Of a DNA stretch of 38,370 nt, positions 13,051 to 35,854 are shown one piece after another. The notes under the pieces were generated by a model. That model was not told the origin of the DNA, did not search any database, and was given only the letters and a program-made list of their open reading frames with translations. Origin of the DNA: Desulfatirhabdium butyrativorans (GTDB taxonomy: Bacteria > Desulfobacterota > Desulfobacteria > Desulfobacterales > JAIFKL01); contig DZCT01000002.1 in NCBI GenBank assembly GCA_022736535.1, forward strand, positions 1-38,370, read 5' to 3'. How positions within the stretch are numbered: the first letter of the stretch is position 1; the number at the start of each line of letters is the position of its first letter. Position numbers and translations under genes: made by a program.

Positions 13051-13650
13051 ATGATTGAGGAAAAAGTGATAACAACGGGTACGAATTCAGCTATCGGAGC
13101 CGGAAGTGCAAATACCGCCGCTGCTACTACTGCTGTACCGGCTGTTGCCGCCAAAACCGCCGCAGTTACAGCGGCTCCGACCGCTGCTACAGCCGCACCG
13201 GTTGCCGCTGCCAAGACTGCCGCTGCTGCTTCGGCGATGCCCGCAGCCGCGACTATGGCAGCGCCGGCGGCTACTGCTGCCAAAACCGCCGCTGTCACAG
13301 CCGCACCGAGTGCTGTACCGGTTGCCGGAGCCGCTAAAACTGCCGTAGCGATGCCCGCAGCTATGAGTTCGGCAATGCCGGCTGCAACTGCTGCCAAAAC
13401 TGTCGCTGCTACAGGTGCAGGCGCATCATCTGCTGTACCCGCTGCCGGAGCAGCTAAAGTTTCTGCCGGAACCGGACTTGCAAAAACCGCCCCTATTGCA
13501 AAAGCACTCGGAGCAAAAACACTCGGAGCCTTGGCATTTGTGCCGCTTCCCGTATTAGGCGTTTTATCGTTGGCAGGTATTATCGGTGTTGAATTTTGGA
13601 TGGGCAAAAGAGACAGCAAACCGAAATCAACGCCCAAAAAGAAAAAATAA
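13051..13650 (+). CDS. Alanine-rich repeat protein (199 aa) with a C-terminal hydrophobic helix and a polybasic tail; function unknown
   Basis: GAGGGAGAG Shine-Dalgarno-like run 6-14 nt upstream of ATG 13051, with an in-frame stop at 13027. About six ~20-aa units each contain one AAK(T/V) (Lys at residues 35, 55, 78, 96, 116, 136). The C-terminus is FVPLPVLGVLSLAGIIGVEFWMG followed by KRDSKPKSTPKKKK. Repeat units 13150-13185 and 13279-13314 differ by four synonymous third-position changes (gca/gct, gtt/gtc, gcg/gcc, gct/gca) and one non-synonymous codon. That pattern fits selection on this frame. Confidence 0.6.
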   Translation: MIEEKVITTGTNSAIGAGSANTAAATTAVPAVAAKTAAVTAAPTAATAAPVAAAKTAAAASAMPAAATMAAPAATAAKTAAVTAAPSAVPVAGAAKTAVAMPAAMSSAMPAATAAKTVAATGAGASSAVPAAGAAKVSAGTGLAKTAPIAKALGAKTLGALAFVPLPVLGVLSLAGIIGVEFWMGKRDSKPKSTPKKKK

Positions 13651-16694: not shown

Positions 16695-18040
16695 TGTTTA
16701 CAGATTTTTTGTCAGAGATATTCTCAGATAACAAAGAAAAAGATGCGCTCGTCTGGCAGGACAGAAAATACTTATACGAATATCTGCTGAACGCCTTTCA
16801 AGACTGGCAAAAAAACCTTGATGAAAGCGGGATTGCAAAGAATTCTGTCGTATTGCTGGAAGCGGATTTTTCGCCCAATGCGCTGGCGTTGATGCTTGCG
16901 CTGATAGAACATGAGTGTATTGTCGTACCGTTTACGACTTCGGTAAAAGCGAAAAAAGCGGAATTTTGCGAGATTGCTCAGGCTGAACATATTGTCAGTA
17001 TTGACGAAAACGACATAGTTTCTTTTGAAAGAATATCTCGTGAGGCGGACCATGACTTGCTGAGACAACTGAAAATGAGGAGACATCCGGGGCTGATCCT
17101 TTTTTCTTCAGGTTCCACAGGAAAGAGCAAAGCCGCGCTGCATGATTTTGCGCCCCTGCTGGAAAAATTCAAACTTCGCCGCCATGCCATGCGAACCCTC
17201 ACGTTTCTGCTGTTTGACCATATCGGCGGCGTCAACACATTGCTGCATATTTTATCTAATGCGGGCTGCGCTGTCACGGTTCAGGAGCGTTCACCGGAAA
17301 GCGTCTGCAAGGCGATTGAAACGCACAAAGTTCAGCTTTTGCCGACTTCTCCGACTTTTATCTCCCTGCTCCTGCTCAGTGAGGCATATCGCAACTATGA
17401 TATGACTTCCCTTGAATTAGTGACTTACGGCACGGAAGTCATGCCGGAAAGCACGCTGAAAAAGTTTCACGAATGCTTTCCGAATGTCCGATTACTCCAA
17501 ACCTACGGGCTTTCGGAAATCGGCATCATGCGCTCGAAATCCGAGTCATCGGATTCTTTGTGGATGAAAATCGGAGGCGAAGGCATTCAAACCCGCATTG
17601 CTGACGGGATTCTTCAGATTAAAACGCCTTCCGCCATGCTGGGTTATCTCAACGCGCCGAGTCCTTTCACCCCGGACGGCTGGTTTGACACAGGAGACAA
17701 AGTAGAGACAAACGGCGATTATATTCGCATACTCGGCAGAGAATCGGAGATCATCAATGTGGGCGGAGAAAAGGTCTGGCCCGCTGAAATAGAAGAAGTC
17801 ATTCAGATGATGCCGGGCGTGGAAGATGTGGCGGTCTGCGGTGTGAAAAGTCCGATTACCGGTCAGATGGTTCAGGCGAGCGTGAAACTCAAAACTGACG
17901 AGACGCTTTCGGATTTTCGGAAAAGAATGCGGAACTTCTGCAAAGACAAACTCTCTGCTTTCAAGGTTCCGCAAAAAGTGATGCTGACCGATCACGCTTT
18001 TCACGGGGGACGGTTTAAGAAATTGAGAATTAAGCAGTAA
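16694..18040 (+). CDS. Stand-alone adenylate-forming enzyme (acyl-AMP / acyl-ACP ligase family)
   Basis: ATG 16694 overlaps the SDR stop (ATGA), with GGAGG at 16681-16685. Motifs: LILFSSGSTGKSKA, TYGLSE, FDTGDKVE, GRESEIINVGGEKVWPAEIEE. At 448 aa it is shorter than typical acyl-CoA synthetases. Confidence 0.88.
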   Translation: MFTDFLSEIFSDNKEKDALVWQDRKYLYEYLLNAFQDWQKNLDESGIAKNSVVLLEADFSPNALALMLALIEHECIVVPFTTSVKAKKAEFCEIAQAEHIVSIDENDIVSFERISREADHDLLRQLKMRRHPGLILFSSGSTGKSKAALHDFAPLLEKFKLRRHAMRTLTFLLFDHIGGVNTLLHILSNAGCAVTVQERSPESVCKAIETHKVQLLPTSPTFISLLLLSEAYRNYDMTSLELVTYGTEVMPESTLKKFHECFPNVRLLQTYGLSEIGIMRSKSESSDSLWMKIGGEGIQTRIADGILQIKTPSAMLGYLNAPSPFTPDGWFDTGDKVETNGDYIRILGRESEIINVGGEKVWPAEIEEVIQMMPGVEDVAVCGVKSPITGQMVQASVKLKTDETLSDFRKRMRNFCKDKLSAFKVPQKVMLTDHAFHGGRFKKLRIKQ

Positions 18041-18077
18041 TACAGAACAAGTTGGAGGATCGAGGCGGTTCTCTGAA

Positions 18078-18107
18078 ACTGTCATTCTGAGCGAAGCGAA
18101 GAATCTC
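18078..18107 (+). repeat. Solo copy of the CTGTCATTCTGAG..GAAGAATCTC unit
   Basis: ACTGTCATTCTGAGCGAAGCGAAGAATCTC lies in the spacer between the ligase gene and NRPS3. It is near-identical to 35665-35694. Confidence 0.85.
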
Positions 18108-18132
18108 ATTCCGCTATGCAGGGAGCATAAGT

Positions 18133-21100
18133 ATGTTTGCCAAAAAAAATGTAAAGAATATCTGCGCATTGACGCCGCTTCAGGAAGGCATTCTTTTTCA
18201 TGCGCTGTACAGCAAGGAAAATGCAACTTATTTTGAACAATTCAACTATCATATCTCCGGAAAGACAGATATTCCGCTGTTTGAAGCCGCCTGGAATGAA
18301 CTGATGCGGCGGCATGATATTTTCAGAACCGTGTTTGTGCATAAAAATGTGCCCCAGCCCTTACAGATTGTTCTCAAAGAACGCAAGATTGACTTTACTT
18401 TTGAAGACATCCGCAGTCTCAGCCCGGAAGCGCAGCGGGACCGCTGGCTCGTTTACAGAGAAAAAGATAAGAAAAGATATTTTGACCTGAGCAAAGATGC
18501 GCTGATGCGGGTGGCGGTGTTTCAACTGGCTGAAAATTCATTCAATATAACATGGAGCTTTCATCACATCGTCATGGACGGCTGGAGCGTGGGCATTGTT
18601 TATGACGAGCTGATTACTCTTTATCATTCCATGAGAAACGGAAACACAACGACACTGCCGGCGCCCGTGTCTTTCGGCGAGTATGTGAAATGGCTGAAAA
18701 AACAGGATACCGAAGCTGCAAAAGACTACTGGCGGAAATATTTGGCAGACTACCGCCGCCTGACCGGTTTGCCTCGTATTCTCGGAGAAAAGAAAAAAGA
18801 ATTTGTCAAAAAGACTTTTGAGTTCAAACTTTCTGAAACCATGTCTCAAGGATTGCGGGATACGGCTGCCCGGCATCATGTGACCGTCAACACGGTGATT
18901 CAGGTGATCTGGGGTATTCTTTTGGGGAAATACAACGATGCGACAGATGCGGTCTTTGCCGCAACCGTTTCGGGCAGACCTGCTGATCTCAAAGGTGTTG
19001 AGCGCATTGTCGGACTTTTTATCAATGCGATTCCGGTCCGCATTCAGATGAGACAGGGACAGACGACAGAAGCTTTGCTGCAAAAGACGCATCATGACGC
19101 TGCGGAAAACAAAGACTACCATTATTACTCGCTGGCAGACATTCAGTCAGAGACGCTTCTCAAACAGCGCCTTCTGGATCATCTTCTGATATTTGAAAGT
19201 TATCCGGATTTGGGGAAGTCGGAAGGACGCGGGGAGACCGAGTTTGTCATTGACGAGTTTGAACAGTTTGAACTCACCAACTATGATCTTTCCGTACAGG
19301 TTTTTCCGGAAGAGACATTTCATTTCTGTGTTATTTATAACGCTTCGGTTTATGAGCAAAACATAATAGAAAAGATTGAACCGCATCTGAAAACAATTAT
19401 TGAGTCAATTCTGAAAGATGCAGAAGTCGAACCGTCACAAATTGCGCTGCTTTCACCTGATGAGCAGGAGACATATCGGAAAGCTGCAAATGAGATAAAT
19501 GAGTCATTGCTGAAACTGCCTGTGCAGAGAGACGGAGCAAGAAGTTTGTCGGCAGTTTATGCAGAGCCGGAAAACGAGGCGCAGGAAAAATTGGTCTCGA
19601 TATGGAAAGAAGTCATGAATGTCGGGACCCTCGGCATTGATGACAACTTTTTTGAACTGGGCGGACACAGCCTGATGGCAACCCGGATTGTCTCCCGCAT
19701 CCATAAGATATTTGAAGTCGAAATCACCTTGCAGGAATTTTTTGACCGTCCGAATGTGAGGAAATTAAGCGAAGTCATTTCCCGGCACGCTGCCGCCGCG
19801 TATTCGGAGATTGAAGTCATTCCCGAACAGGAAGACTACGAAGTCTCCCATTCTCAGCGCAGACTCTGGATTTTAGACCGGATGGAAGAAAATTTCATTG
19901 CTTATAATCAGTCTGCGGGTTTTCTTTTTAAAGGAGATATGGACATTCCCGCGTTAAAACGTGCAGTTCGCTCGGTCTGCCGGCGGCATGAATCCCTGAG
20001 AACCGTCTTTGTTATGAAAGACGGAACGCCGAGACAGAAAATTCAGGCAGCCTCGCAAGTTGAGATTACAGAAACTGACTTGAGCCGTGCGGAGAATAAA
20101 GAAGATATAGCAAAAAATTATGCAAGGAAAGAGGCAACGCTTCCTTTTGATTTGGAAAAGGGACCCCTGTTGAGAGTCAGCATCCTGCGGCTTACAGATG
20201 ACTCCCGTTTATTGCTCATAAATATTCATCATATTATCTGCGACGGCTGGTCGGTTGTGCTTTTTGAAAATGAGATATTGACGCTGTATAAATCCTTTAC
20301 AGAAGGGCATGAAGCGGATTTATCTCCTTTGAAAATACAGTACAAAGACTACTCGGCATGGCATAACCGGCTTTTGGAAAGCGAGAATATCCGGGCGCAT
20401 CAGGCATACTGGCATCAGAAATTATCCGGCGAACTGCCGGTACTGAATCTCCCGACAGATTACCCGCGTCCCGCTACACTGAGCTATAAGGGAAACACCG
20501 TAACGCATGTTCTGAACGCCGAACTTTCCGCATCTCTTGATCAATTTTGCAGAGAAAAGCAAGTCAGTCTTTTTATGACTCTGCTCGCGGGCGCAAAAGT
20601 GCTGCTGCACCGCTATACGGGACAGAACGACATCATCATCGGTTCGCCGATTGCCGGCAGAATTCACCCGGATTTGGAACATCAGATCGGTTTCTTTGTG
20701 AACACGCTTGCCCTGAGAGATACGGTTCTCGGCGATGAAAGTTTTATGACGCTGCTGTCAAAGGTGAAGCAGACCACGCTTGAGGCATACCAGCATCAGG
20801 TTTACCCTTTTGACAAGCTGGTAGAAGAACTTGATGTTCAGCGGGACATCAGCCGCTCGCCGATTTTTGACGTGATGCTCGTTTTGCAGAATACCGACGA
20901 GATAAAAACTGATCTGCCGAATGTGGAGATAAAGCCTTTTGCTTATGAAACCGGCGTGAGTCAGTTTGATCTCACGCTGATTTTCACGCAGGATGAGGGA
21001 AAACTCCGGCTCGACATGAACTGCAACACCGATCTGTTTGCAAATGAGACAATCCTGCGGATGGGAAGGCATTTCGAGGAAGTGCTGAAAAGCATTCTGT

Positions 21101-24100
21101 CAGCGCCGGAGCATCAGATTCGGAACATAAACCTGTTGAGCGCGGCAGAGAAACAGCAGATTCTCTTTGACTTTAACAACACCAAAGCCCCGTATCCCGA
21201 AGACAAGACATTGGCTGATCTCTTTGAAGAACAAGTCATCAGGACGCCGGACAATATCGCGGTCATTTTTGAGGAAAAGCAGATGACTTACAGGGAACTG
21301 AATGACGCGGCAGACCGGCTCGCGCATGATCTCAGAGACAAGTATCAGATTCAGCCTGATGATCTGGTTGCTGTGATGATGAAGCGTAGCGAACAGCTCA
21401 TTGTCTCATTGCTGGGAATTTTGAAAGCAGGCGGCGCGTATCTGCCCATAGACCCCGCCTATCCTCAGAAAAGAATTGACTACATGCTCAACGACAGCGC
21501 ATGTAAGGTTTGCATAGGGGTACGGGGTACGGGGTTAGAGGTTCGGGGGGCGGGGGCCGCCCCTCGCACCTCTAACCTCAAACCTCAAACCTCGAACCTC
21601 GCCTACGTCATCTACACCTCCGGTTCTACCGGACAGCCCAAAGGCGTTATGATTGAACACCGCGGGTTTGTAAACATGACGCTGGATCAGATCAGAGGCT
21701 TCGGCGTGTCGGAATCGGATCGGGTGTTGCAGTTTTCTTCTCCTTCTTTTGACGCGTCATTGTCTGAGATATTCATGGCATTGCTCAAAGGCGCGGCATT
21801 GGTCATGATTTCGACAGACACGATTAATGACTCACATCGTTTTCTCGAATATATTGAGAGACATAAGGTAAGCGTGATTACCTTTCCGCCGGTCTATCTG
21901 AATATGCTCAACAAACATCCGCTGCCCACGGTCAGAACCATTATCACCGCGGGCGAACCCGCCATTCTCGGCGATGTGCTGTTTTACTGCAAAGACAGAC
22001 AGTATTTCAACGCCTACGGGCCTACGGAAACATCGGTCTGCACCTCATATTACAGAGTGCCGCCTGATTTCCGTGCGCCCTATTCCGGGTTCCGCATTCC
22101 CATCGGCGCGCCCATCGCCAATTCCTCTGTTTTTATTGTGGATGAGTCAATACAGCCCGTGCCGGTAGGCGTGACGGGAGAAATCTGTTTTTCGGGCGTG
22201 GGACTTGCCAGGGGGTATCTCAACAAGCCGGAACTGACCGCAGAGAAATTTGTCGAAAATCCTTTTCACCCCGGAACCCGGCTGTACAAAATCGGCGATC
22301 TGGGAAAATGGCTTCCGGACGGCAATATTGTTTTTCTCGGGAGAAAAGACGATCAGGTAAAAGTCAGAGGCTTCCGCATCGAACTGGGAGAAATCGAAAG
22401 CCGCCTGAAACAGCATCCGCAAATAACAGACGCATTGGTTCTGGCTGTGGGGGAAAACGAAAACTCAAGGCAATTAGTCGCATATCTCATTACGCATTCG
22501 GAAATAAATCTGGGAGAAATGAGAAATTTTCTGGGCGAAAGTCTTCCGCCTTTTATGATGCCGAATCATTTTGTGAGTCTTGAAAAATTCCCGCTCACCG
22601 TAAACGGAAAAATTGACAAGCGGGCTTTGCCCGGCGTTTCATCGGATTTGTCTCACGGACCGGATGATATGCCGCCCCGGAACGAGACAGAAGCAACACT
22701 TCTGAATGTCTGGAAAAAACTGTTTCAGAAAGAGAAAATCGGCATTTATGATGACTTCTTCGCGCTCGGCGGCGATTCCGTCAAAGCCATTCAGACCGTA
22801 TCGCTGCTGCATGAGCAAAACCTGAAGGTCAGAGCCAAAGATATTTTTCAATACCCCACAGTTGCACAGTTGGCTAAAGCCGCTGTTTTGTCCGGGCGCG
22901 GTCTTGCAGCAAATCAGGAGATGATTTCCGGCTATGTGCCGCTGACCCCGATTACCGCATGGTTTTTTAAAGAATTTACGGTTGACAGACATCACTTCAA
23001 CCATTCCGACCTGTTCTGTGTCAGAGAAAGGCTTGACGAAGACGCGCTGCGCGCCGCGTTTGCAAAGATACAGGAACACCATGACGCGCTGAGAATGCGC
23101 TGCCGCTTTGAAAACGGAAACTGGAAATTGGAAATTGCGGGAGACAATTATCCCCTGCATTTTGAAGTAACAGATTTGCGAAACTCGGAACAGGCGGTTT
23201 CGGAACTGGAATCCCACGCACAGCAGCTTCAGTCAAGCCTGAATTTGAAGAAAGGTCCTCTGATGAAAGCGGTTTTGTTCCGAATGCCTCATCCGGAGTG
23301 TCAAAATGAAATTTTGACAAGCACAGACCGGCTGCTGATTATCGTGCATCATCTCGTGATTGACGGCGTTTCATGGCGTTTTTTTCTGGAAGACCTTTTG
23401 CGGGGATATGAGCAGTATTTATCAAATAAGACCGTTACCCTGCCCCCGAAAAGCGATTCTTTCAAAGAATGGGCGGAAGGGATTCAGACATACAGCAGCA
23501 GCGATGAACTGCTCGGAGAAAAAGAATATTGGCGGCAGTTGGAAGCAACGCCGACCGGAGAACTGCCATGGGATGATGATTCCTCCCCCTCAGACACGGA
23601 TGAGGCGCGGATGAAGCATACCTTCACAGCCGATTTTAACTTGTCTCAGGCGGAAACCGAAATGCTTCTGACCTGTAGAGACGCAACATTTTGTGTCTCT
23701 GACGCGGCGAGAACCGATGAACTGCTGCTCACCGCACTGGCATGGGCGCTGAAACAATGGCACGGACATGACAGAACGCTGATTCATCTTGAAGGACACG
23801 GACGGGAAGATATTGTCAGGGGGACCGATGTCAGCCGGACCGTCGGCTGGTTCACGGCGGTTTATCCGGTGATCTTAGATTCGCCGGACGCATCTGATGC
23901 GGTGCAGATCGGGACAATTAAAGGCATTCTGCGAAATATTCCCAACCGGGGCATGGGATACGGGATTCTGAAATATGTGACGCCCTCGGCATATAAACAG
24001 GAATTGAAGTTCAATTTAAAGCCCCGCATCAGTTTCAACTATCTGGGTGAAATGGAGGCTTACGGAACCGGCATTTTTGAAAGGGCAACCGAATCCTGCG

Positions 24101-24288
24101 GCAATGCGGTCAGCCCGGACGCAAAGCTTATCCATGATATAGACATCAATGCGGTCATCATTGAAAAAAAACTGCATATTGACCTGACGGCAAACGGCTT
24201 GAAGTGCCGCCCCGAGCGCATTGAAAAAATTTTATCGGATTTTAAAAATAAATTGAAAGAAATAATTGCAAAGTGTGAAAAAATATGA
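18133..24288 (+). CDS. Non-ribosomal peptide synthetase: C-T (no A domain) followed by C-A-T-E; no release domain
   Basis: C1: LTPLQEGILFH, RHDIFRTVF, HHIVMDGW (from 18562). T: FFELGGHSL (Ser 19669-19671). C2: SHSQRRLWILD, RHESLRTVF, HHIICDGW (from 20227). A: LAYVIYTSGSTGQPKG (from 21598), NAYGPTETS, YKIGDLGKW, GRKDDQVKVRGFRIELGEIE, NGKIDKRALP. T: GGDSV (Ser 22777-22779). E: HHLVIDGVSW (from 23347), EGHGRE, RTVGWFT, FNYLGE. The protein ends ..IIAKCEKI with no thioesterase or reductase motif. Confidence 0.95.
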   Translation: MFAKKNVKNICALTPLQEGILFHALYSKENATYFEQFNYHISGKTDIPLFEAAWNELMRRHDIFRTVFVHKNVPQPLQIVLKERKIDFTFEDIRSLSPEAQRDRWLVYREKDKKRYFDLSKDALMRVAVFQLAENSFNITWSFHHIVMDGWSVGIVYDELITLYHSMRNGNTTTLPAPVSFGEYVKWLKKQDTEAAKDYWRKYLADYRRLTGLPRILGEKKKEFVKKTFEFKLSETMSQGLRDTAARHHVTVNTVIQVIWGILLGKYNDATDAVFAATVSGRPADLKGVERIVGLFINAIPVRIQMRQGQTTEALLQKTHHDAAENKDYHYYSLADIQSETLLKQRLLDHLLIFESYPDLGKSEGRGETEFVIDEFEQFELTNYDLSVQVFPEETFHFCVIYNASVYEQNIIEKIEPHLKTIIESILKDAEVEPSQIALLSPDEQETYRKAANEINESLLKLPVQRDGARSLSAVYAEPENEAQEKLVSIWKEVMNVGTLGIDDNFFELGGHSLMATRIVSRIHKIFEVEITLQEFFDRPNVRKLSEVISRHAAAAYSEIEVIPEQEDYEVSHSQRRLWILDRMEENFIAYNQSAGFLFKGDMDIPALKRAVRSVCRRHESLRTVFVMKDGTPRQKIQAASQVEITETDLSRAENKEDIAKNYARKEATLPFDLEKGPLLRVSILRLTDDSRLLLINIHHIICDGWSVVLFENEILTLYKSFTEGHEADLSPLKIQYKDYSAWHNRLLESENIRAHQAYWHQKLSGELPVLNLPTDYPRPATLSYKGNTVTHVLNAELSASLDQFCREKQVSLFMTLLAGAKVLLHRYTGQNDIIIGSPIAGRIHPDLEHQIGFFVNTLALRDTVLGDESFMTLLSKVKQTTLEAYQHQVYPFDKLVEELDVQRDISRSPIFDVMLVLQNTDEIKTDLPNVEIKPFAYETGVSQFDLTLIFTQDEGKLRLDMNCNTDLFANETILRMGRHFEEVLKSILSAPEHQIRNINLLSAAEKQQILFDFNNTKAPYPEDKTLADLFEEQVIRTPDNIAVIFEEKQMTYRELNDAADRLAHDLRDKYQIQPDDLVAVMMKRSEQLIVSLLGILKAGGAYLPIDPAYPQKRIDYMLNDSACKVCIGVRGTGLEVRGAGAAPRTSNLKPQTSNLAYVIYTSGSTGQPKGVMIEHRGFVNMTLDQIRGFGVSESDRVLQFSSPSFDASLSEIFMALLKGAALVMISTDTINDSHRFLEYIERHKVSVITFPPVYLNMLNKHPLPTVRTIITAGEPAILGDVLFYCKDRQYFNAYGPTETSVCTSYYRVPPDFRAPYSGFRIPIGAPIANSSVFIVDESIQPVPVGVTGEICFSGVGLARGYLNKPELTAEKFVENPFHPGTRLYKIGDLGKWLPDGNIVFLGRKDDQVKVRGFRIELGEIESRLKQHPQITDALVLAVGENENSRQLVAYLITHSEINLGEMRNFLGESLPPFMMPNHFVSLEKFPLTVNGKIDKRALPGVSSDLSHGPDDMPPRNETEATLLNVWKKLFQKEKIGIYDDFFALGGDSVKAIQTVSLLHEQNLKVRAKDIFQYPTVAQLAKAAVLSGRGLAANQEMISGYVPLTPITAWFFKEFTVDRHHFNHSDLFCVRERLDEDALRAAFAKIQEHHDALRMRCRFENGNWKLEIAGDNYPLHFEVTDLRNSEQAVSELESHAQQLQSSLNLKKGPLMKAVLFRMPHPECQNEILTSTDRLLIIVHHLVIDGVSWRFFLEDLLRGYEQYLSNKTVTLPPKSDSFKEWAEGIQTYSSSDELLGEKEYWRQLEATPTGELPWDDDSSPSDTDEARMKHTFTADFNLSQAETEMLLTCRDATFCVSDAARTDELLLTALAWALKQWHGHDRTLIHLEGHGREDIVRGTDVSRTVGWFTAVYPVILDSPDASDAVQIGTIKGILRNIPNRGMGYGILKYVTPSAYKQELKFNLKPRISFNYLGEMEAYGTGIFERATESCGNAVSPDAKLIHDIDINAVIIEKKLHIDLTANGLKCRPERIEKILSDFKNKLKEIIAKCEKI
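19570..19783 (+). other. Carrier (T) domain of an adenylation-less C-T module inside NRPS3
   Basis: ENEAQEKLVSIWKEVMNVGTLGIDDNFFELGGHSLMATRIVSRIHKIFEVEITLQEFF follows the first C domain after a short linker. No A-domain core motif lies between them. Domain boundaries are approximate. Confidence 0.8.
21517..21600 (+). repeat. Palindromic heptamer-repeat element, intragenic and in frame (A domain of NRPS3)
   Basis: Twelve contiguous 7-mers. G-rich arm: GGGGTAC GGGGTAC GGGGTTA GAGGTTC GGGGGGC GGGGGCC. C-rich arm: GCCCCTC GCACCTC TAACCTC AAACCTC AAACCTC GAACCTC. GGTTAGAGGT (21533-21542) and ACCTCTAACC (21568-21577) are exact reverse complements. 84 nt = 28 codons, translated GVRGTGLEVRGAGAAPRTSNLKPQTSNL. 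Confidence 0.9.
23292..23323 (+). repeat. Small palindromic element, family 2, intragenic and in frame (E domain of NRPS3)
   Basis: TCCGGAGTGTCAAAATGAAATTTTGACAAGCA. Perfect 9-bp stem TGTCAAAAT / ATTTTGACA with loop GAA. It encodes part of HPECQNEILTS, 10 residues absent from the two sister E domains. Confidence 0.85.
23676..23701 (+). repeat. Small palindromic element, family 3, intragenic and in frame (E domain of NRPS3)
   Basis: TAGAGACGCAACATTTTGTGTCTCTG matches the intergenic palindrome at 33258-33283 at 23 of 26 positions. The stem keeps a G-U wobble on the + strand RNA. It encodes CRDATFCVSD in place of the (K/N)VNHAY(N/H)T motif of the sister E domains. Confidence 0.8.
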
Positions 24289-24537: not shown

Positions 24538-25479
24538 ATGAAAAGGGTGGTGAAATGTGTCTTTTGTCTGTGGGTAATTTCTTTGCTCATAAATGCCCCG
24601 CTGGCCGCTTTTGCAGAGCAGGAATCAGCTCAGGCATCTGTAGAAGGCGACGCCGAGAAACAGAAAAAGGACCTGGGGGAATGGTGGAACAGGAATCCGC
24701 TGACATACAGTCCGGTCCCGGATGAATTTCTCTATCATCTGGAAGCGACTTATGACTGGAGCCGGCAGACCGGCAATTTTACCAATGACAAGCATGACCT
24801 CAGCGCGCTGCTGACGCTGAGAAAAAACATTTTTACCTATAACGTCCGATATGCGTTGGACAAGCGGAATGCGTCCAGACCGTATCCGCCGCCGTATCAG
24901 GACGACAACAAAGACCTTCGGAAAAGCACCCGGCATGAAATCCACAATGATTTCAGGATGGCACTCACAGACCGCATCATTGCATCCGTGGGCATGTTCT
25001 GGCTCAAAGACGACTACATCAAAATCGAGAACCGTTCTACCTATTACGGCGGGCTGGGCTATACTGTGTTCAGACATCCGAGACTGAAAATAGATATCTT
25101 CGGCGCTTATGCTTATGAAGAACAGGATCATACCGACGAGTACCATGAGGATTATCTGAAAATGCAGGACTGGGGGCAGACCGCCGGTGCGAACTATGAC
25201 AGCGGAACCGAAATGTACAGTCTGCTTTATCTTTATCAGTCAGCCAGATGTTATGTGACCCGCTCTCTGGTATTGAATGAAAGCATTCATTATTTTCTGA
25301 ATCCGGATGACAGCGACAAGTACCGCTGGAAATTCAATGTGAGCGCGGACATCAAAATCATAGAACATATTTTTGCCACTCTCAGTTACGATGAGACTTA
25401 TGACAATTCGCCTGAATCCATAATGGGAATCCGCAAAAGAGATTCTTCCATCGGCGCAGGTGTAAAAATAAGTTTTTGA
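24538..25479 (+). CDS. Secreted protein, probable outer-membrane beta-barrel
   Basis: AGGAGG sits 8 nt upstream. Signal peptide MKRVVKCVFCLWVISLLINAPLAAFA|EQ. The body has alternating hydrophobic/polar, Tyr/Asp/Asn-rich strands. The C-terminus GAGVKISF ends in Phe, as in many OM barrels. Family assignment (possibly DUF481/YdiY-like) is uncertain. Confidence 0.6.
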   Translation: MKRVVKCVFCLWVISLLINAPLAAFAEQESAQASVEGDAEKQKKDLGEWWNRNPLTYSPVPDEFLYHLEATYDWSRQTGNFTNDKHDLSALLTLRKNIFTYNVRYALDKRNASRPYPPPYQDDNKDLRKSTRHEIHNDFRMALTDRIIASVGMFWLKDDYIKIENRSTYYGGLGYTVFRHPRLKIDIFGAYAYEEQDHTDEYHEDYLKMQDWGQTAGANYDSGTEMYSLLYLYQSARCYVTRSLVLNESIHYFLNPDDSDKYRWKFNVSADIKIIEHIFATLSYDETYDNSPESIMGIRKRDSSIGAGVKISF

Positions 25480-25490
25480 GAAGTGAGCAA

Positions 25491-25560
25491 CAGGTTCGAG
25501 GTTTGGGGTTCGAGGTTCGAGGACTTCTCCCGCACCCGCACTCCGTACCCCGTACCCCAT
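25491..25560 (+). repeat. Palindromic heptamer-repeat element, intergenic copy
   Basis: CAGGTTC GAGGTTT GGGGTTC GAGGTTC GAGGACT | TCTCCCG CACCCGC ACTCCGT ACCCCGT ACCCCAT. The right arm ACCCCGTACCCC is the reverse complement of the GGGGTACGGGGT seen at 21517. It lies between the stop at 25479 and the start at 25575. Confidence 0.9.
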
Positions 25561-25574
25561 CTGGGAGAAAAAAA

Positions 25575-27371
25575 ATGAGGAAAAAACAAAATACGGTGTT
25601 TGACAAAGCATTCCGTCTTTGTACGGCAATCCTGATGCTGATGTTCTCCGCTTTCGGATGCGGCGGCGAACATGAAGATTATGTCTCTGAGAGAGAAGGA
25701 CGCTTTATAGACAGCGCCGTGCAGGGACTGTCCTATATTTCCGGCAGTCGTACCGACATAACCGATGAAAACGGGACTTTCTTTTATGAAAAAGGCAAAG
25801 ATGTCACATTCAGGCTCGGAAACATTGTACTCGGGTCTGCGACAACTGTTCTGGAATTAGATATAAAAACACAGGAACTTGCGCCGGACATACTGACGCT
25901 GACCCCCAGAGATCTGGTTTCCGCAGCGGAAAGCGACAGAGACCCGCAGGTGACAAATATTCTGCGCTTTTTGCAGACATTGGATGATGATGCGAATCCG
26001 GATAACGGCATTATGCTGTCAGAATCTGTGAGACAAAAAGCAGAAAAATACAGTACGGAAGTTGACTTCTCATTAAGCACAGACAAATTTGAAGAAAAAA
26101 TACAGACTGTCGTAAATGATCTGCTGGGCAAAGAGCGGGAACTGATTTCCGCGGTCAGGGCGCAGAATCATTTTATTCGGACCAAATTGCAGGAGATATT
26201 GGACAAAGCGGTTTCAGAAAACGAGGTTCCCGGCGTGGCACTCGTTGCGGAAGTTCCCTGCGAGGGAGAAGACTGTGCAGACGGCGCGATGGACGGCGTG
26301 ACTTATTCGGACGGAAAATTTACATGGAAGCTGACAAGCGGTTATTCCAATCTGGAAACCCAAACGCCCATGACCGCCGATACCCGATTCCGGGTTGCCA
26401 GTCTGACCAAAACATTTGTGGCAATGACCGTCATGCAAATGGTCGAGGAAGGAAAGATAACTCTCGACGATTCCATAGAACAGTGGTTTCCCGGACTGAT
26501 TCCCAACGGTGAAAACATCAATATCCGTCAGGTGGTGAATCACTCCAGCGGGCTTTATAATTTCTATGAAGTGCCTTCCGACTGGTTTTTTGATTTCCTG
26601 TTTCTCCGTCAGGATAAATGGGATCCGCTTGATCTCATTGAACTTGCGGTTGAAGAAGGACCGACATTTGCTCCCGGCACAGACTGGCATTATTCAAACA
26701 CAAATTATGTCCTGCTGGGAATGCTCATAGAGAAAGTGACCGGCAACAAGTGGGAAGATGAGATACGAAATCGTTTTATCAATAAATACGGACTGTCCGA
26801 CACCATTGTACCGGAAACCGGGGAGTCAAATCTTGAAGGTCCTTATGTTCAGAATCCGACAGAAGGAAAATACGCCCACGGCTACATTGACCTGTATGAT
26901 GTGACCGGCGCCATGTACGGAAGTAAAAACAAAGGCTTGGAAGACGCTTCGACTCGGGAACCGTCTGCTGCGAGTTCATCGGCATGTATGATTTCCTCGC
27001 CTGAAAATCTGTGCTTATGGATCAGACTCATCGGCGAAGGCAGGCTGTTCGGTGAAGGCTATGATTTTGTCAATGACACCGGCGTTGATCCTGAACTTTA
27101 TTTTCCGATGAATGAGGCAACGGATTGCGGTCCCAATATCTACAAAAATCTCGCAAACAACATGCTGATTGCTTCGGGTAATTTTCTGGGTTACGATGTG
27201 GGTATTGTCTATGATCCGAATCATGGGATACCGATTGCCACATGCGCCAACAGGACATTGAGGTCTGAAGACGGTCAGATAAAAGATATTGTCATTTTTG
27301 ACGCGATTGAGATTCTGGGCGCCGGACTGCCGACGGCTGAAAAAAGGTCGGCGGATTCTGAAGAAATTTGA
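25575..27371 (+). CDS. Secreted (possibly lipoprotein) serine hydrolase of the beta-lactamase / S12 D-peptidase fold, with a ~230-aa N-terminal domain of unknown function
   Basis: I chose the ATG at 25575 (GGGAGA 8 nt upstream); the ORF-track start 25476 would translate the heptamer repeat. N-terminus MRKKQNTVFDKAFRLCTAILMLMFSAFGCGG has a signal peptide with a Cys at a lipobox-like position. SxxK: ASLTKTF (26400-26411). YxN: YSNTNY (from 26691). HG in KYAHGYID. Confidence 0.85.
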   Translation: MRKKQNTVFDKAFRLCTAILMLMFSAFGCGGEHEDYVSEREGRFIDSAVQGLSYISGSRTDITDENGTFFYEKGKDVTFRLGNIVLGSATTVLELDIKTQELAPDILTLTPRDLVSAAESDRDPQVTNILRFLQTLDDDANPDNGIMLSESVRQKAEKYSTEVDFSLSTDKFEEKIQTVVNDLLGKERELISAVRAQNHFIRTKLQEILDKAVSENEVPGVALVAEVPCEGEDCADGAMDGVTYSDGKFTWKLTSGYSNLETQTPMTADTRFRVASLTKTFVAMTVMQMVEEGKITLDDSIEQWFPGLIPNGENINIRQVVNHSSGLYNFYEVPSDWFFDFLFLRQDKWDPLDLIELAVEEGPTFAPGTDWHYSNTNYVLLGMLIEKVTGNKWEDEIRNRFINKYGLSDTIVPETGESNLEGPYVQNPTEGKYAHGYIDLYDVTGAMYGSKNKGLEDASTREPSAASSSACMISSPENLCLWIRLIGEGRLFGEGYDFVNDTGVDPELYFPMNEATDCGPNIYKNLANNMLIASGNFLGYDVGIVYDPNHGIPIATCANRTLRSEDGQIKDIVIFDAIEILGAGLPTAEKRSADSEEI

Positions 27372-27374
27372 AAA

Positions 27375-27444
27375 AAGGTTAGGGGTTAGGGGTTCGAGGT
27401 TCGGGGTCAGAGGTCGCACCCCGAACCTCGCACCCCGAACCCCA
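27375..27444 (+). repeat. Palindromic heptamer-repeat element, intergenic copy (strong hairpin)
   Basis: AAGGTTA GGGGTTA GGGGTTC GAGGTTC GGGGTCA GAGGTCG | CACCCCG AACCTCG CACCCCG AACCCCA. CGAGGTTCGGGGT (27395-27407) pairs perfectly with ACCCCGAACCTCG (27418-27430). It lies between the stop at 27371 and the start at 27451. Confidence 0.9.
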
Positions 27445-33230: not shown

Positions 33231-33290
33231 TCTCGCAAAGGCGCAAAGGTCGCAAAGCAGAGACGCAAAATTTTGCGTCTCTGCGTCTCC
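33231..33290 (+). repeat. Composite intergenic repeat: three CGCAAAG direct repeats plus a 26-bp perfect palindrome (family 3)
   Basis: CGCAAAG at 33234, 33242 and 33251. CAGAGACGCAAAA|TTTTGCGTCTCTG at 33258-33283 is a perfect palindrome. A related TGCAAAGGGCGCAAAG lies at 33367-33382. Confidence 0.85.
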
Positions 33291-33392
33291 TCCTGTTTAC
33301 CCAAAAAATCCTTTGAGCTCTCTGCGCCGAGGCTGAGAACAGATGCGAGAAACCTTTATTATTTCTTGCAAAGGGCGCAAAGATTCTGAACT

Positions 33393-35630: not shown

Positions 35631-35822
35631 GGGTAGCGGTGCAGAAGAGGTGATGAACCCTCTCACTGTCATTCTGAGTGCAGCGAAGAATCTCGTTTTT
35701 TATAATACGCTGTTATAATAAAAGATTCTTCACTGCGTTCAGAATGACAGGTCATACAGAGATTCTTCACTGCGTTCAGAATGACAGAAGCAGAAATCAT
35801 CACCTCTTCTACACCACTACCC
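35631..35822. repeat. 192-bp nested inverted-repeat (MITE-like) element between the two pLGIC paralogs
   Basis: Outer arms GGGTAGCGGTGCAGAAGAGGTGATGA (35631-35656) and TCATCACCTCTTCTACACCACTACCC (35797-35822) match at 24 of 26 positions. Inside are one forward unit ACTGTCATTCTGAGTGCAGCGAAGAATCTC (35665-35694), an AT-rich spacer with a TTATAATA direct repeat, and two inverted units AGATTCTTCACTGCGTTCAGAATGACAG (35723-35750 and 35760-35787). Confidence 0.9.
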
Positions 35823-35854
35823 AAAAAACTTAGTTTCTCACCAATCTGTTATTT

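Follow-up and report, generated by a model that had tools for sequence, protein, structure and literature searches.

An in-frame REP palindrome in the terminal epimerization domain of a Desulfatirhabdium nonribosomal peptide synthetase

We describe a 38,370-nt stretch of DNA from Desulfatirhabdium butyrativorans (contig DZCT01000002.1), called the window below, whose numbering gives all positions unless a locus is named. It carries the nonribosomal peptide synthetase (NRPS) genes NRPS1, NRPS2 and NRPS3. Within NRPS3, in the segment encoding its terminal epimerization (E) domain, lies a short palindrome that has replaced resident codons and that we assign to a family of repetitive extragenic palindromes (REPs) (Table 1). 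The initial annotation of the window had reported that the 26-nt core of this element, TAGAGACGCAACATTTTGTGTCTCTG, agrees with an intergenic palindrome, CAGAGACGCAAAATTTTGCGTCTCTG at 33258-33283, at 23 of 26 positions, and this count is correct. A search of the window with up to three mismatches returned these two sites only, and none of 100 dinucleotide-preserving shuffles contained any match.

The element is read as protein, as first annotated: it encodes CRDATFCVSD within the intact NRPS3 frame. The NRPS3 copy starts with a canonical GTAG head (23675-23678), present on the + strand only, and differs from the family consensus GTAGAGACGCAANNNNTTGCGTCTCTAC by three substitutions, a synonymous C-to-T change at 23694 (TGC to TGT) and a 3′ end that reads GA, not AC. 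Because the copy starts with a canonical GTAG, T23676 is the family consensus and need not be a decayed form of the C in the intergenic palindrome. The CATT loop also occurs in four other family copies, for example at locus L050. In the + strand RNA, the G-U wobble previously pointed out lies at G23683/T23694, and a further one is formed by T23676/G23701. This strand folds with a free energy of -15.9 kcal/mol (z = -4.4), compared with -11.8 kcal/mol for the - strand. With a length of 26-28 nt, a stem of 10-12 bp and a 4-nt loop, the element is a short imperfect palindrome in the 20-40 nt range of REPs, and it has their 5′ GTAG tetranucleotide. A GTAG head combined with a hairpin is the signature of the GTAG REP superfamily (PMC3733652). 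No Rfam family matched the window at gathering thresholds.

At the site of the element, the sister E domains of NRPS1 and NRPS2 read NVNHAYHTNIND-ILL and KVNHAYNTEIND-ILL, and NRPS3 is four residues longer. The 120 E-domain homologues all lack additional residues there; their consensus is vNxAY-xTeINDiLL, and its spacing is invariant. The search that supplied them had no hit above 52% identity and did not recover the true orthologues. Related loci were instead reached via the neighboring KAS III and ABC genes, yielding orthologues from a sister lineage in L124 (JGI 3300028584) and L123 (the metagenome-assembled genome (MAG) IS3), at about 82% amino acid identity and a synonymous divergence (dS) of 0.57. 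Both orthologues read LLT-KAGQAY-AAGTDELLL and the window reads LLT-CRDATFCVSD-AARTDELLL. The DNA flanks are homologous in all three, with CTTCTGAC on one side and ACGC(C/G)GCG(G/A)GAACCGATGA on the other. Across the site, L124 and L123 have CTTCTGAC, then AAAAGCCGGCCAGGCTT, then ACGCC (K-A-G-Q-A-Y), and the window has CTTCTGAC, then CTGTAGAGACGCAACATTTTGTGTCTCTG, then ACGCG. The exchange of 17 nt for 29 nt therefore replaced six codons by ten.

The earlier proposal that a conserved E-domain segment was overwritten is thus borne out, as a 17-to-29-nt replacement within a segment of invariant length. Its count of 14 unrelated residues holds in part: the first ten are derived from the element, whereas the last four (AART) are ancestral, because the orthologues read AAGT. 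A broad E-domain alignment had been suggested as a check for CRDATFCVSD-like sequence as a normal variant, and no such variant occurs in the 120 homologues or the two orthologues. Since the element is absent from the orthologues, the sister E domains and the 120 homologues, it is a gain in the window lineage, and the alignments show its arrival in the DNA encoding the NRPS3 E domain to postdate the split from the IS3/L124 lineage.

The site is identical and gap-free in three further assemblies from other projects: L121 (NCBI GCA_975759245.1, 99.94% identical to the window), L122 (JGI 3300000230, 99.95%) and L128 (JGI 3300042991, 99.88%). They differ from the window by few single-nucleotide polymorphisms (SNPs), none within the element. 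Because these three assemblies are identical at the site, an assembly artefact is excluded for practical purposes. Two more sequences, L126 and L127, are 100% identical to the window. The window derives from a Desulfobacteraceae (Desulfonema-like) population, to which the three assemblies also belong, and one window protein clusters at ≥90% identity with a protein of 'Desulfobacteraceae bacterium IS3'. No exact record of NRPS3 as delimited here was found. Two scans of metagenome contigs, one with a flank-gap-flank pattern for filled and empty alleles and one with a 25-mer conserved in the three lineages, gave no matches, the collection evidently lacking these samples.

Table 1. Features of the window discussed in the text (C, condensation; T, thiolation; A, adenylation; E, epimerization).
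Feature	Position	Strand	Remarks
NRPS3, 2051 aa, C-T-C-A-T-E (Pfam)	18133..24288	+	uninterrupted frame
Terminal E domain, host of the element	22885..24285	+	Pfam Condensation
REP copy in NRPS3, 28-nt family register	23675..23702	+	GTAGAGACGCAA-CATT-TTGTGTCTCT-GA; core = 23676-23701
29-nt block without orthologue counterpart	23673..23701	+	replaces 17 nt (AAAAGCCGGCCAGGCTT in L124); net +12 nt; from DNA alignment and indel map
Ten codons CRDATFCVSD, NRPS3 residues 1848-1857	23674..23703	+	in place of ancestral KAGQAY; frame R-D-A-x-x-C-V-S
Intergenic sister copy GCAGAGACGCAAAATTTTGCGTCTCTGC	33257..33284		perfect palindrome; GCAG/CTGC ends instead of GTAG/CTAC
Window-specific intergenic DNA, ~150 nt	33233..33389		contains the sister copy and CGCAAAGG repeats
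73-nt G-rich/C-rich hairpin, in frame	21519..21591	+	A domain, just before motif A3 (GVRGTGLEVRGAGAAPRTSNLKPQTSNL); family GGGGTTCGAGGTTCGGGG...
Palindrome TGTCAAAATGAAATTTTGACA, in frame	23299..23319	+	within HPECQNEILT, just upstream of E-domain HHxxxDG

We now turn to the family to which the element belongs. Scanning one genome per species for the pattern AGAGACRCAANNNNTTGYGTCTCT yielded at least 120 loci (L001-L120), the source organism not being among the matches listed; by a rough estimate, about two chance matches would be expected in the collection. The loci come from Bacteroidales, Planctomycetaceae, Anaerolineae, Brocadiaceae, Desulfobacterales, Acidobacteriota, the Candidate Phyla Radiation (CPR) and others, and the phyla among the matches listed include Bacteroidota, Planctomycetota, Chloroflexota, Desulfobacterota, Acidobacteriota and CPR. 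As a rule, REP families are described as species- or genus-specific. The following statistics refer to 131 copies in these loci. The family consensus is GTAGAGACGCAA-N4-TTGCGTCTCTAC, or GT-AGAGACGCAA-N4-TTGCGTCTCT-AC in its 28-nt form, which starts with GTAG, ends with CTAC and varies in the loop (AATT, TGCA, GATT, AATC and, four times, CATT). Full GTAG...CTAC ends are found in 89 of the 131 copies. The one stem pair that the pattern left free is paired as G-C in 119 copies and as A-T in 7, versus A.C in 4 and G.T in 1. A literature search with the half-site strings GTAGAGACGCAA and TTGCGTCTCTAC returned unrelated molecular-biology papers only.

The family is predominantly extragenic: counting only frames that stay open for 80 codons or more to the left and to the right of the palindrome, 113/131 copies lie outside and the other 18 inside such frames. 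Two frames of the palindrome are open in either orientation and encode about 10 residues (V-E-T-Q-x-x-A-S-L and R-D-A-x-x-C-V-S), and the third holds the TAG of GTAG. When ten of these 18 copies were checked against Pfam, five lay inside a domain envelope (two in AcrB pumps and one each in a valyl-tRNA synthetase, a Ser/Thr kinase and a U32 peptidase) and one in an interdomain linker. The insertion sites in the two AcrB proteins differ, and their sequences are too divergent to judge whether insertion was clean.

Clustering all open reading frames (ORFs) of these loci brought out one recurrent small protein resembling REP-associated tyrosine transposases (RAYTs). In L006, a gene for a 178-aa protein (1255-1788, - strand) has palindrome doublets on both sides, and homologues stand beside palindrome copies in L056 (199-792, - strand), L080 (1254-1802, + strand) and L077. 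The sole NCBIfam match of these proteins is 'REP-associated tyrosine transposase' (NF047646, E = 1e-15), at 50-58 bits versus a cut-off of 80. Their sole match in the PDB is E. coli TnpA-REP (4er8, E = 6.6e-6), with the HUH motif and the conserved C-terminal WQ-R block aligned. The Pfam Y1_Tnp score falls just below threshold, and JGI labels the homologues 'REP element-mobilizing transposase RayT'. Judged by these similarities, the family is one of REPs that are accompanied in other genomes by a RAYT-like gene.

The RAYT-like genes themselves often contain the palindrome. Among the 120 nearest homologues (proteins P0138-P0257), 82 have a REP peptide, RDAMHCVS(T) or VETQCIASL, within their own ORF. 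Alignment of 45 proteins places it in a hypervariable loop that separates the HUH motif from KNkFGPQSKNLAS. Two to three copies, or degenerate ones, are present in some proteins, and a few have none. A search of the full texts of PMC3733652 and PMC8266576 found no description of in-frame REPs inside RAYT-like genes. Residence of a REP in its own transposase-like gene may reflect autoregulation or cis-preferential insertion.

With a probability of roughly 80%, we interpret the NRPS3 element as a REP copy that arrived in frame in a length-tolerant loop of the E domain and persists there as a passenger. The element would be selfish or neutral, surviving because it is in frame by chance and sits in a loop that tolerates changes in length. 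We infer mobilization as single-stranded DNA by a RAYT (TnpA-REP, HUH/Y1) transposase because the same palindrome flanks RAYT-like genes in other genomes, and action of RAYTs on single-stranded DNA is the textbook route. The replacement of codons could reflect two changes, with 30 nt inserted in frame and 18 nt deleted, or one imprecise event.

Several observations weigh against this interpretation. The junction is a replacement and not a clean insertion, and it has no duplication. The NRPS3 copy is a singlet and not a doublet, and so is the intergenic copy, unlike REPINs, the inverted REP doublets that are proposed as the mobile unit (Bertels and Rainey 2011, PMC3116915). The intergenic copy has GCAG in place of the GTAG head. 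No RAYT gene was found by tblastn in the window or in L121-L125. RAYTs recognize GTAG and cut REPs in single-stranded form, at CT dinucleotides that flank them on both sides (PMC8266576), and among 89 other copies no enrichment of CT next to GTAG was seen (4% of flanks), so CT dinucleotides were dropped as cleavage marks. The 38-kb window contains only two family copies, which leaves a high copy number in this genome unproven. Finally, the ratio of nonsynonymous to synonymous divergence (dN/dS) is significantly higher in the E domain than in the other domains, and the domain may, to judge from its substitutions, have lost some epimerase efficiency.

Alternatively, the REP may have been copied in from another REP by break repair or by a replication template switch, as filler DNA or ectopic gene conversion, and not by RAYT transposition. 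Such an event would account for the loss of 17 nt alongside the gain of 29 nt without a target-site duplication, and it agrees with the singlet state of the copy, with the lack of a RAYT in the window and L121-L125, and with CT not being enriched at the flanks of other copies. A second in-frame REP, found in the E domain of the L124 orthologue and described below, also has changed flanking residues (HSGFSS-VERVSNPLY-SGTDS versus A-GDNYP). However, no flanking homology or microhomology was found between the two window copies, and elsewhere the family is tied to RAYT-like genes. Moreover, RAYTs cut several CT sites in vitro at a variable distance from the hairpin (PMC8266576), so that ragged products are possible. 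Templated repair or ectopic conversion is thus a serious mechanistic rival to a RAYT, though in our judgment an improbable one.

The initial annotation had proposed relaxed constraint on the last module of NRPS3 or some tolerated or exploited role for its elements. Compared with L124, the dN/dS of NRPS3 is 0.178 (dS 0.57), and neighboring genes range from 0.105 to 0.235. By domain, it is 0.243 for the E domain (bootstrap 0.186-0.323) versus 0.151 for C-T-C-A (0.122-0.180), both far below 1. These ratios show that the NRPS3 gene and its E domain remain under purifying selection, with the E domain, by the same measure, somewhat relaxed and clearly constrained. Of the proposed roles, a tolerated element in a mildly relaxed domain fits best, and an exploited role is without support.

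A bleaker account holds that the E domain is decaying and that elements gather in it because it is no longer needed, so that their presence would reflect loss of function and not tolerance. The elevated E-domain ratio points in this direction, as do at least four in-frame element-type indels in the domain across two lineages and a pre-E3 motif that, as AAGTDE, already departs from the canonical NTEIND in the orthologues. Against it, dN/dS stays far below 1 at a dS of about 0.6, and no assembly contains a stop codon or frameshift. The motifs HHLVIDG, EGHGRE, RTVGWFT, PNRGMGYG and FNYLG are intact. On a condensation fold, the domain has the E-domain series E2 (HHxxxDG), E3 (DxLLxA), E4 (EGHGRE), E5 (RTVGWFT), E6 (PxxGxGYG) and E7 (FNYLG), and it keeps all 21 columns that are invariant in a 72-sequence alignment, including HHxxxDG and EGHGRE.

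The predicted structure likewise speaks against decay. The AlphaFold model of the E domain has a pLDDT of 92.1 and a pTM of 0.91, and Foldseek places it closest to TycB3(E) (6ta8; TM 0.89/0.94, root-mean-square deviation 1.9 Å), followed by 2xhg and 5isx; solved E domains match at TM 0.88-0.94 versus about 0.7 for C domains. The element residues are 264-273 of the model, of which C264-D266 end helix 255-266 and A267-D273 lie in loop 267-276; the helix that follows (277-293) carries motif E3 (D-x-L-L-x-A). The new residues are thus predicted to prolong a helix and to add length to the loop that leads into this motif. Model confidence is lower in three loops, namely the segment with the element (blocks 71 and 80), the other in-frame element, and an acidic variable loop at 231-240 (block 67).

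The terminal E domain is probably still active, and therefore a D-configured last residue remains the expectation. NRPS3 ends in T-E, without a thioesterase. Two ORFs downstream, at 25476-27371, lies the gene of a 631-aa protein with a beta-lactamase fold (S12/penicillin-binding protein (PBP) fold). Its best solved relatives are the alkaline D-peptidase 4y7p (E = 4e-43) and the R61 DD-peptidase; SurE (6ksu) matches at E = 4e-10, and a 270-aa N-terminal extension has no match. By similarity, two roles are conceivable for this protein, PBP-type offloading cyclase and D-stereospecific peptidase. PBP-type cyclases require a C-terminal D-residue (PMC11735501), so a working E domain would be needed, the cyclase assignment being tentative. 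An S12 D-peptidase/PBP-like gene, of a class that acts on D-residues, counts against a decaying E domain. Decay is contradicted by the data on selection and motifs, and we regard it as an unlikely explanation.

The hairpin might instead have been co-opted, either in the mRNA, for ribosome pausing between the E subdomains or protection from RNases, or at the protein level, where the segment would serve a separate function. Both pairing departures are G-U on the strand in transcribed sense, where the folding energy is also the lower of the two, and the element is fixed without a SNP in four assemblies. But two transitions are too few to demonstrate selection, G-T pairs are general in REPs (PMC3733652), the sister lineage lives without the element and Rfam has no matching family. 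Fixation says little here because the four assemblies differ by only about 0.1%. We consider co-option very unlikely. No evidence favors a chance match, a normal variant of the E domain or a chimeric assembly, and all three are excluded, given the empty shuffles, the 120 homologues and two orthologues without the element and the three further assemblies that agree base for base.

The intergenic sister copy starts 36 nt past the stop codon of an SBP_bac_5 gene and folds at -21.8 kcal/mol on either strand (z = -7.1). We dropped it as an intrinsic terminator, since a T run is lacking and terminator prediction did not mark it. In L124, the same spacer is only 28 nt long, and on this comparison the intergenic copy, too, is a lineage-specific gain. 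The same window-specific insertion holds three tandem CGCAAAG(G) motifs directly before the palindrome (33234-33257), and GCAAAGGGCGCAAAG recurs within it near 33375. In L123 (12174-12653), the same spacer is occupied by a different GTAG REP pair (GTAGGGCGGACAAAGCGGAGCGTGTCCGCC ... GGTGGACACGCTTCGCTTAGTCCACCCTAC), repeated in tandem about three times. This site was thus colonized independently in the window lineage and in the IS3 MAG.

NRPS3 contains further in-frame elements, as first annotated, and both were recovered (Table 1). Related copies of the G-rich/C-rich hairpin in the A domain lie at 27382-27443 and 25483-25537. At the site of this hairpin, an insert that differs in sequence and length is present in the orthologues. 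The TGTCAAAATGAAATTTTGACA palindrome is carried by the orthologues too, with 19 extra residues alongside (57 nt in L124). The statement that NRPS1 and NRPS2 have no such elements needs a small qualification, in that core motifs of the scanned families give scattered partial matches there, all with 1-2 mismatches. The sister lineage has an element of its own: at 5272-5298 of L124, and also in L123, a different, perfect GTAG...CTAC REP, GTAGAGCGGGTTTCAAACCCGCTCTAC, is read in frame as SVERVSNPLY within the orthologous NRPS3 E domain, and the window reads EIA-GDNYP at this site (~23137-23141), without the element. Half-copies related to it lie in intergenic DNA of L124 at ~20375-20530. As far as these alignments tell, the NRPS3 E domain took up several REP-type elements independently in two lineages and was under selection throughout.

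Other repeats occur elsewhere in the window. Window-specific intergenic insertions at 18040-18122 and 35636-35848 belong to a GTCATTCTGAG...GCGAAGAATC family and are absent from L124; the second includes an inverted repeat with 37-nt arms (35666-35750). Between NRPS2 and the KAS III gene, a 199-aa ORF without a Pfam match (13051-13650) contains degenerate, Ala/Thr/Pro-rich tandem repeats in which GCN, ACN and CCG codons abound.

Intragenic, translated GTAG REPs have been described in several species (Di Nocera, De Gregorio and Rocco 2013, BMC Genomics 14:522; PMC3733652), with REP-decorated proteins mostly in Opitutus terrae and Rickettsia conorii. Like those GTAG REPs, the present family has a palindrome of 20-40 nt with GTAG at one end and G-T stem pairs, and most copies lie downstream of ORFs, with a minority inside ORFs and translated. 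Unlike them, the host here is an NRPS E domain and not a replication or repair gene, resident codons were replaced, and the stem is common to genomes of many phyla, where the families of that study are reported per species. The family also resembles the REPtrons of E. coli, Stenotrophomonas and Marinomonas (PMC2817692, PMC3479197, PMC8266576) in that, in other genomes, REP doublets flank a small HUH/Y1 transposase-like gene (L006), and group 3 REPs in its GTAG head and near-perfect stem. It differs from REPtrons in that the associated proteins, known from sequence alone, fall below the NCBIfam RAYT cut-off and are weak against Pfam Y1_Tnp, and in that most of the RAYT-like genes carry their own REP in frame. 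As in REPINs (PMC3116915), REPs would be non-autonomous elements relying on a single-copy RAYT.

A second precedent comes from Rickettsia. The Rickettsia palindromic elements (RPEs) were reportedly described by Ogata et al. in 2000. They are selfish palindromic DNA in frame in still-functional protein genes, typically adding a surface segment. RPE-1, RPE-4 and RPE-6 are discussed in PMC3733652. Like an RPE, the NRPS3 element is a putatively selfish palindrome in frame in a coding gene. However, RPE-1 is about 100-150 bp long and confined to Rickettsia, whereas the element here has 28 nt, adds a net four residues and belongs to a cross-phylum family; we therefore rejected an RPE-1 type on size, the in-frame position agreeing. 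A MITE, a miniature transposable element with inverted repeats, was rejected as well, the element being a single hairpin without a junction duplication and with 17 nt of the target missing.

The intragenic REP phenomenon is thus already known, and the NRPS host and the replacement junction are its new particulars. More unusual are a single REP stem shared across phyla and an in-frame REP within most of its own RAYT-like genes. We put forward tentatively, as doubtful at present, that one RAYT-REP system has spread over many bacterial phyla, routinely inside coding sequence and decorating essential or large proteins, and that the NRPS3 copy is one instance of a general, undescribed protein-decorating lifestyle. 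For NRPS3 itself, CRDATFCVSD is mobile-element sequence and not a specificity or docking feature, and predictions of chemistry should leave it out of account. In the engineering of NRPSs, the site before motif E3 and the other in-frame sites of this gene and its orthologues are naturally validated positions at which an E or A domain tolerates 4-20 extra residues. The locus offers clean pairs of filled and empty sites between sister lineages, and it demonstrates that the arrival of a REP in coding DNA can replace codons. It has also led to a cross-phylum REP family whose RAYT-like genes usually hold a REP of their own.

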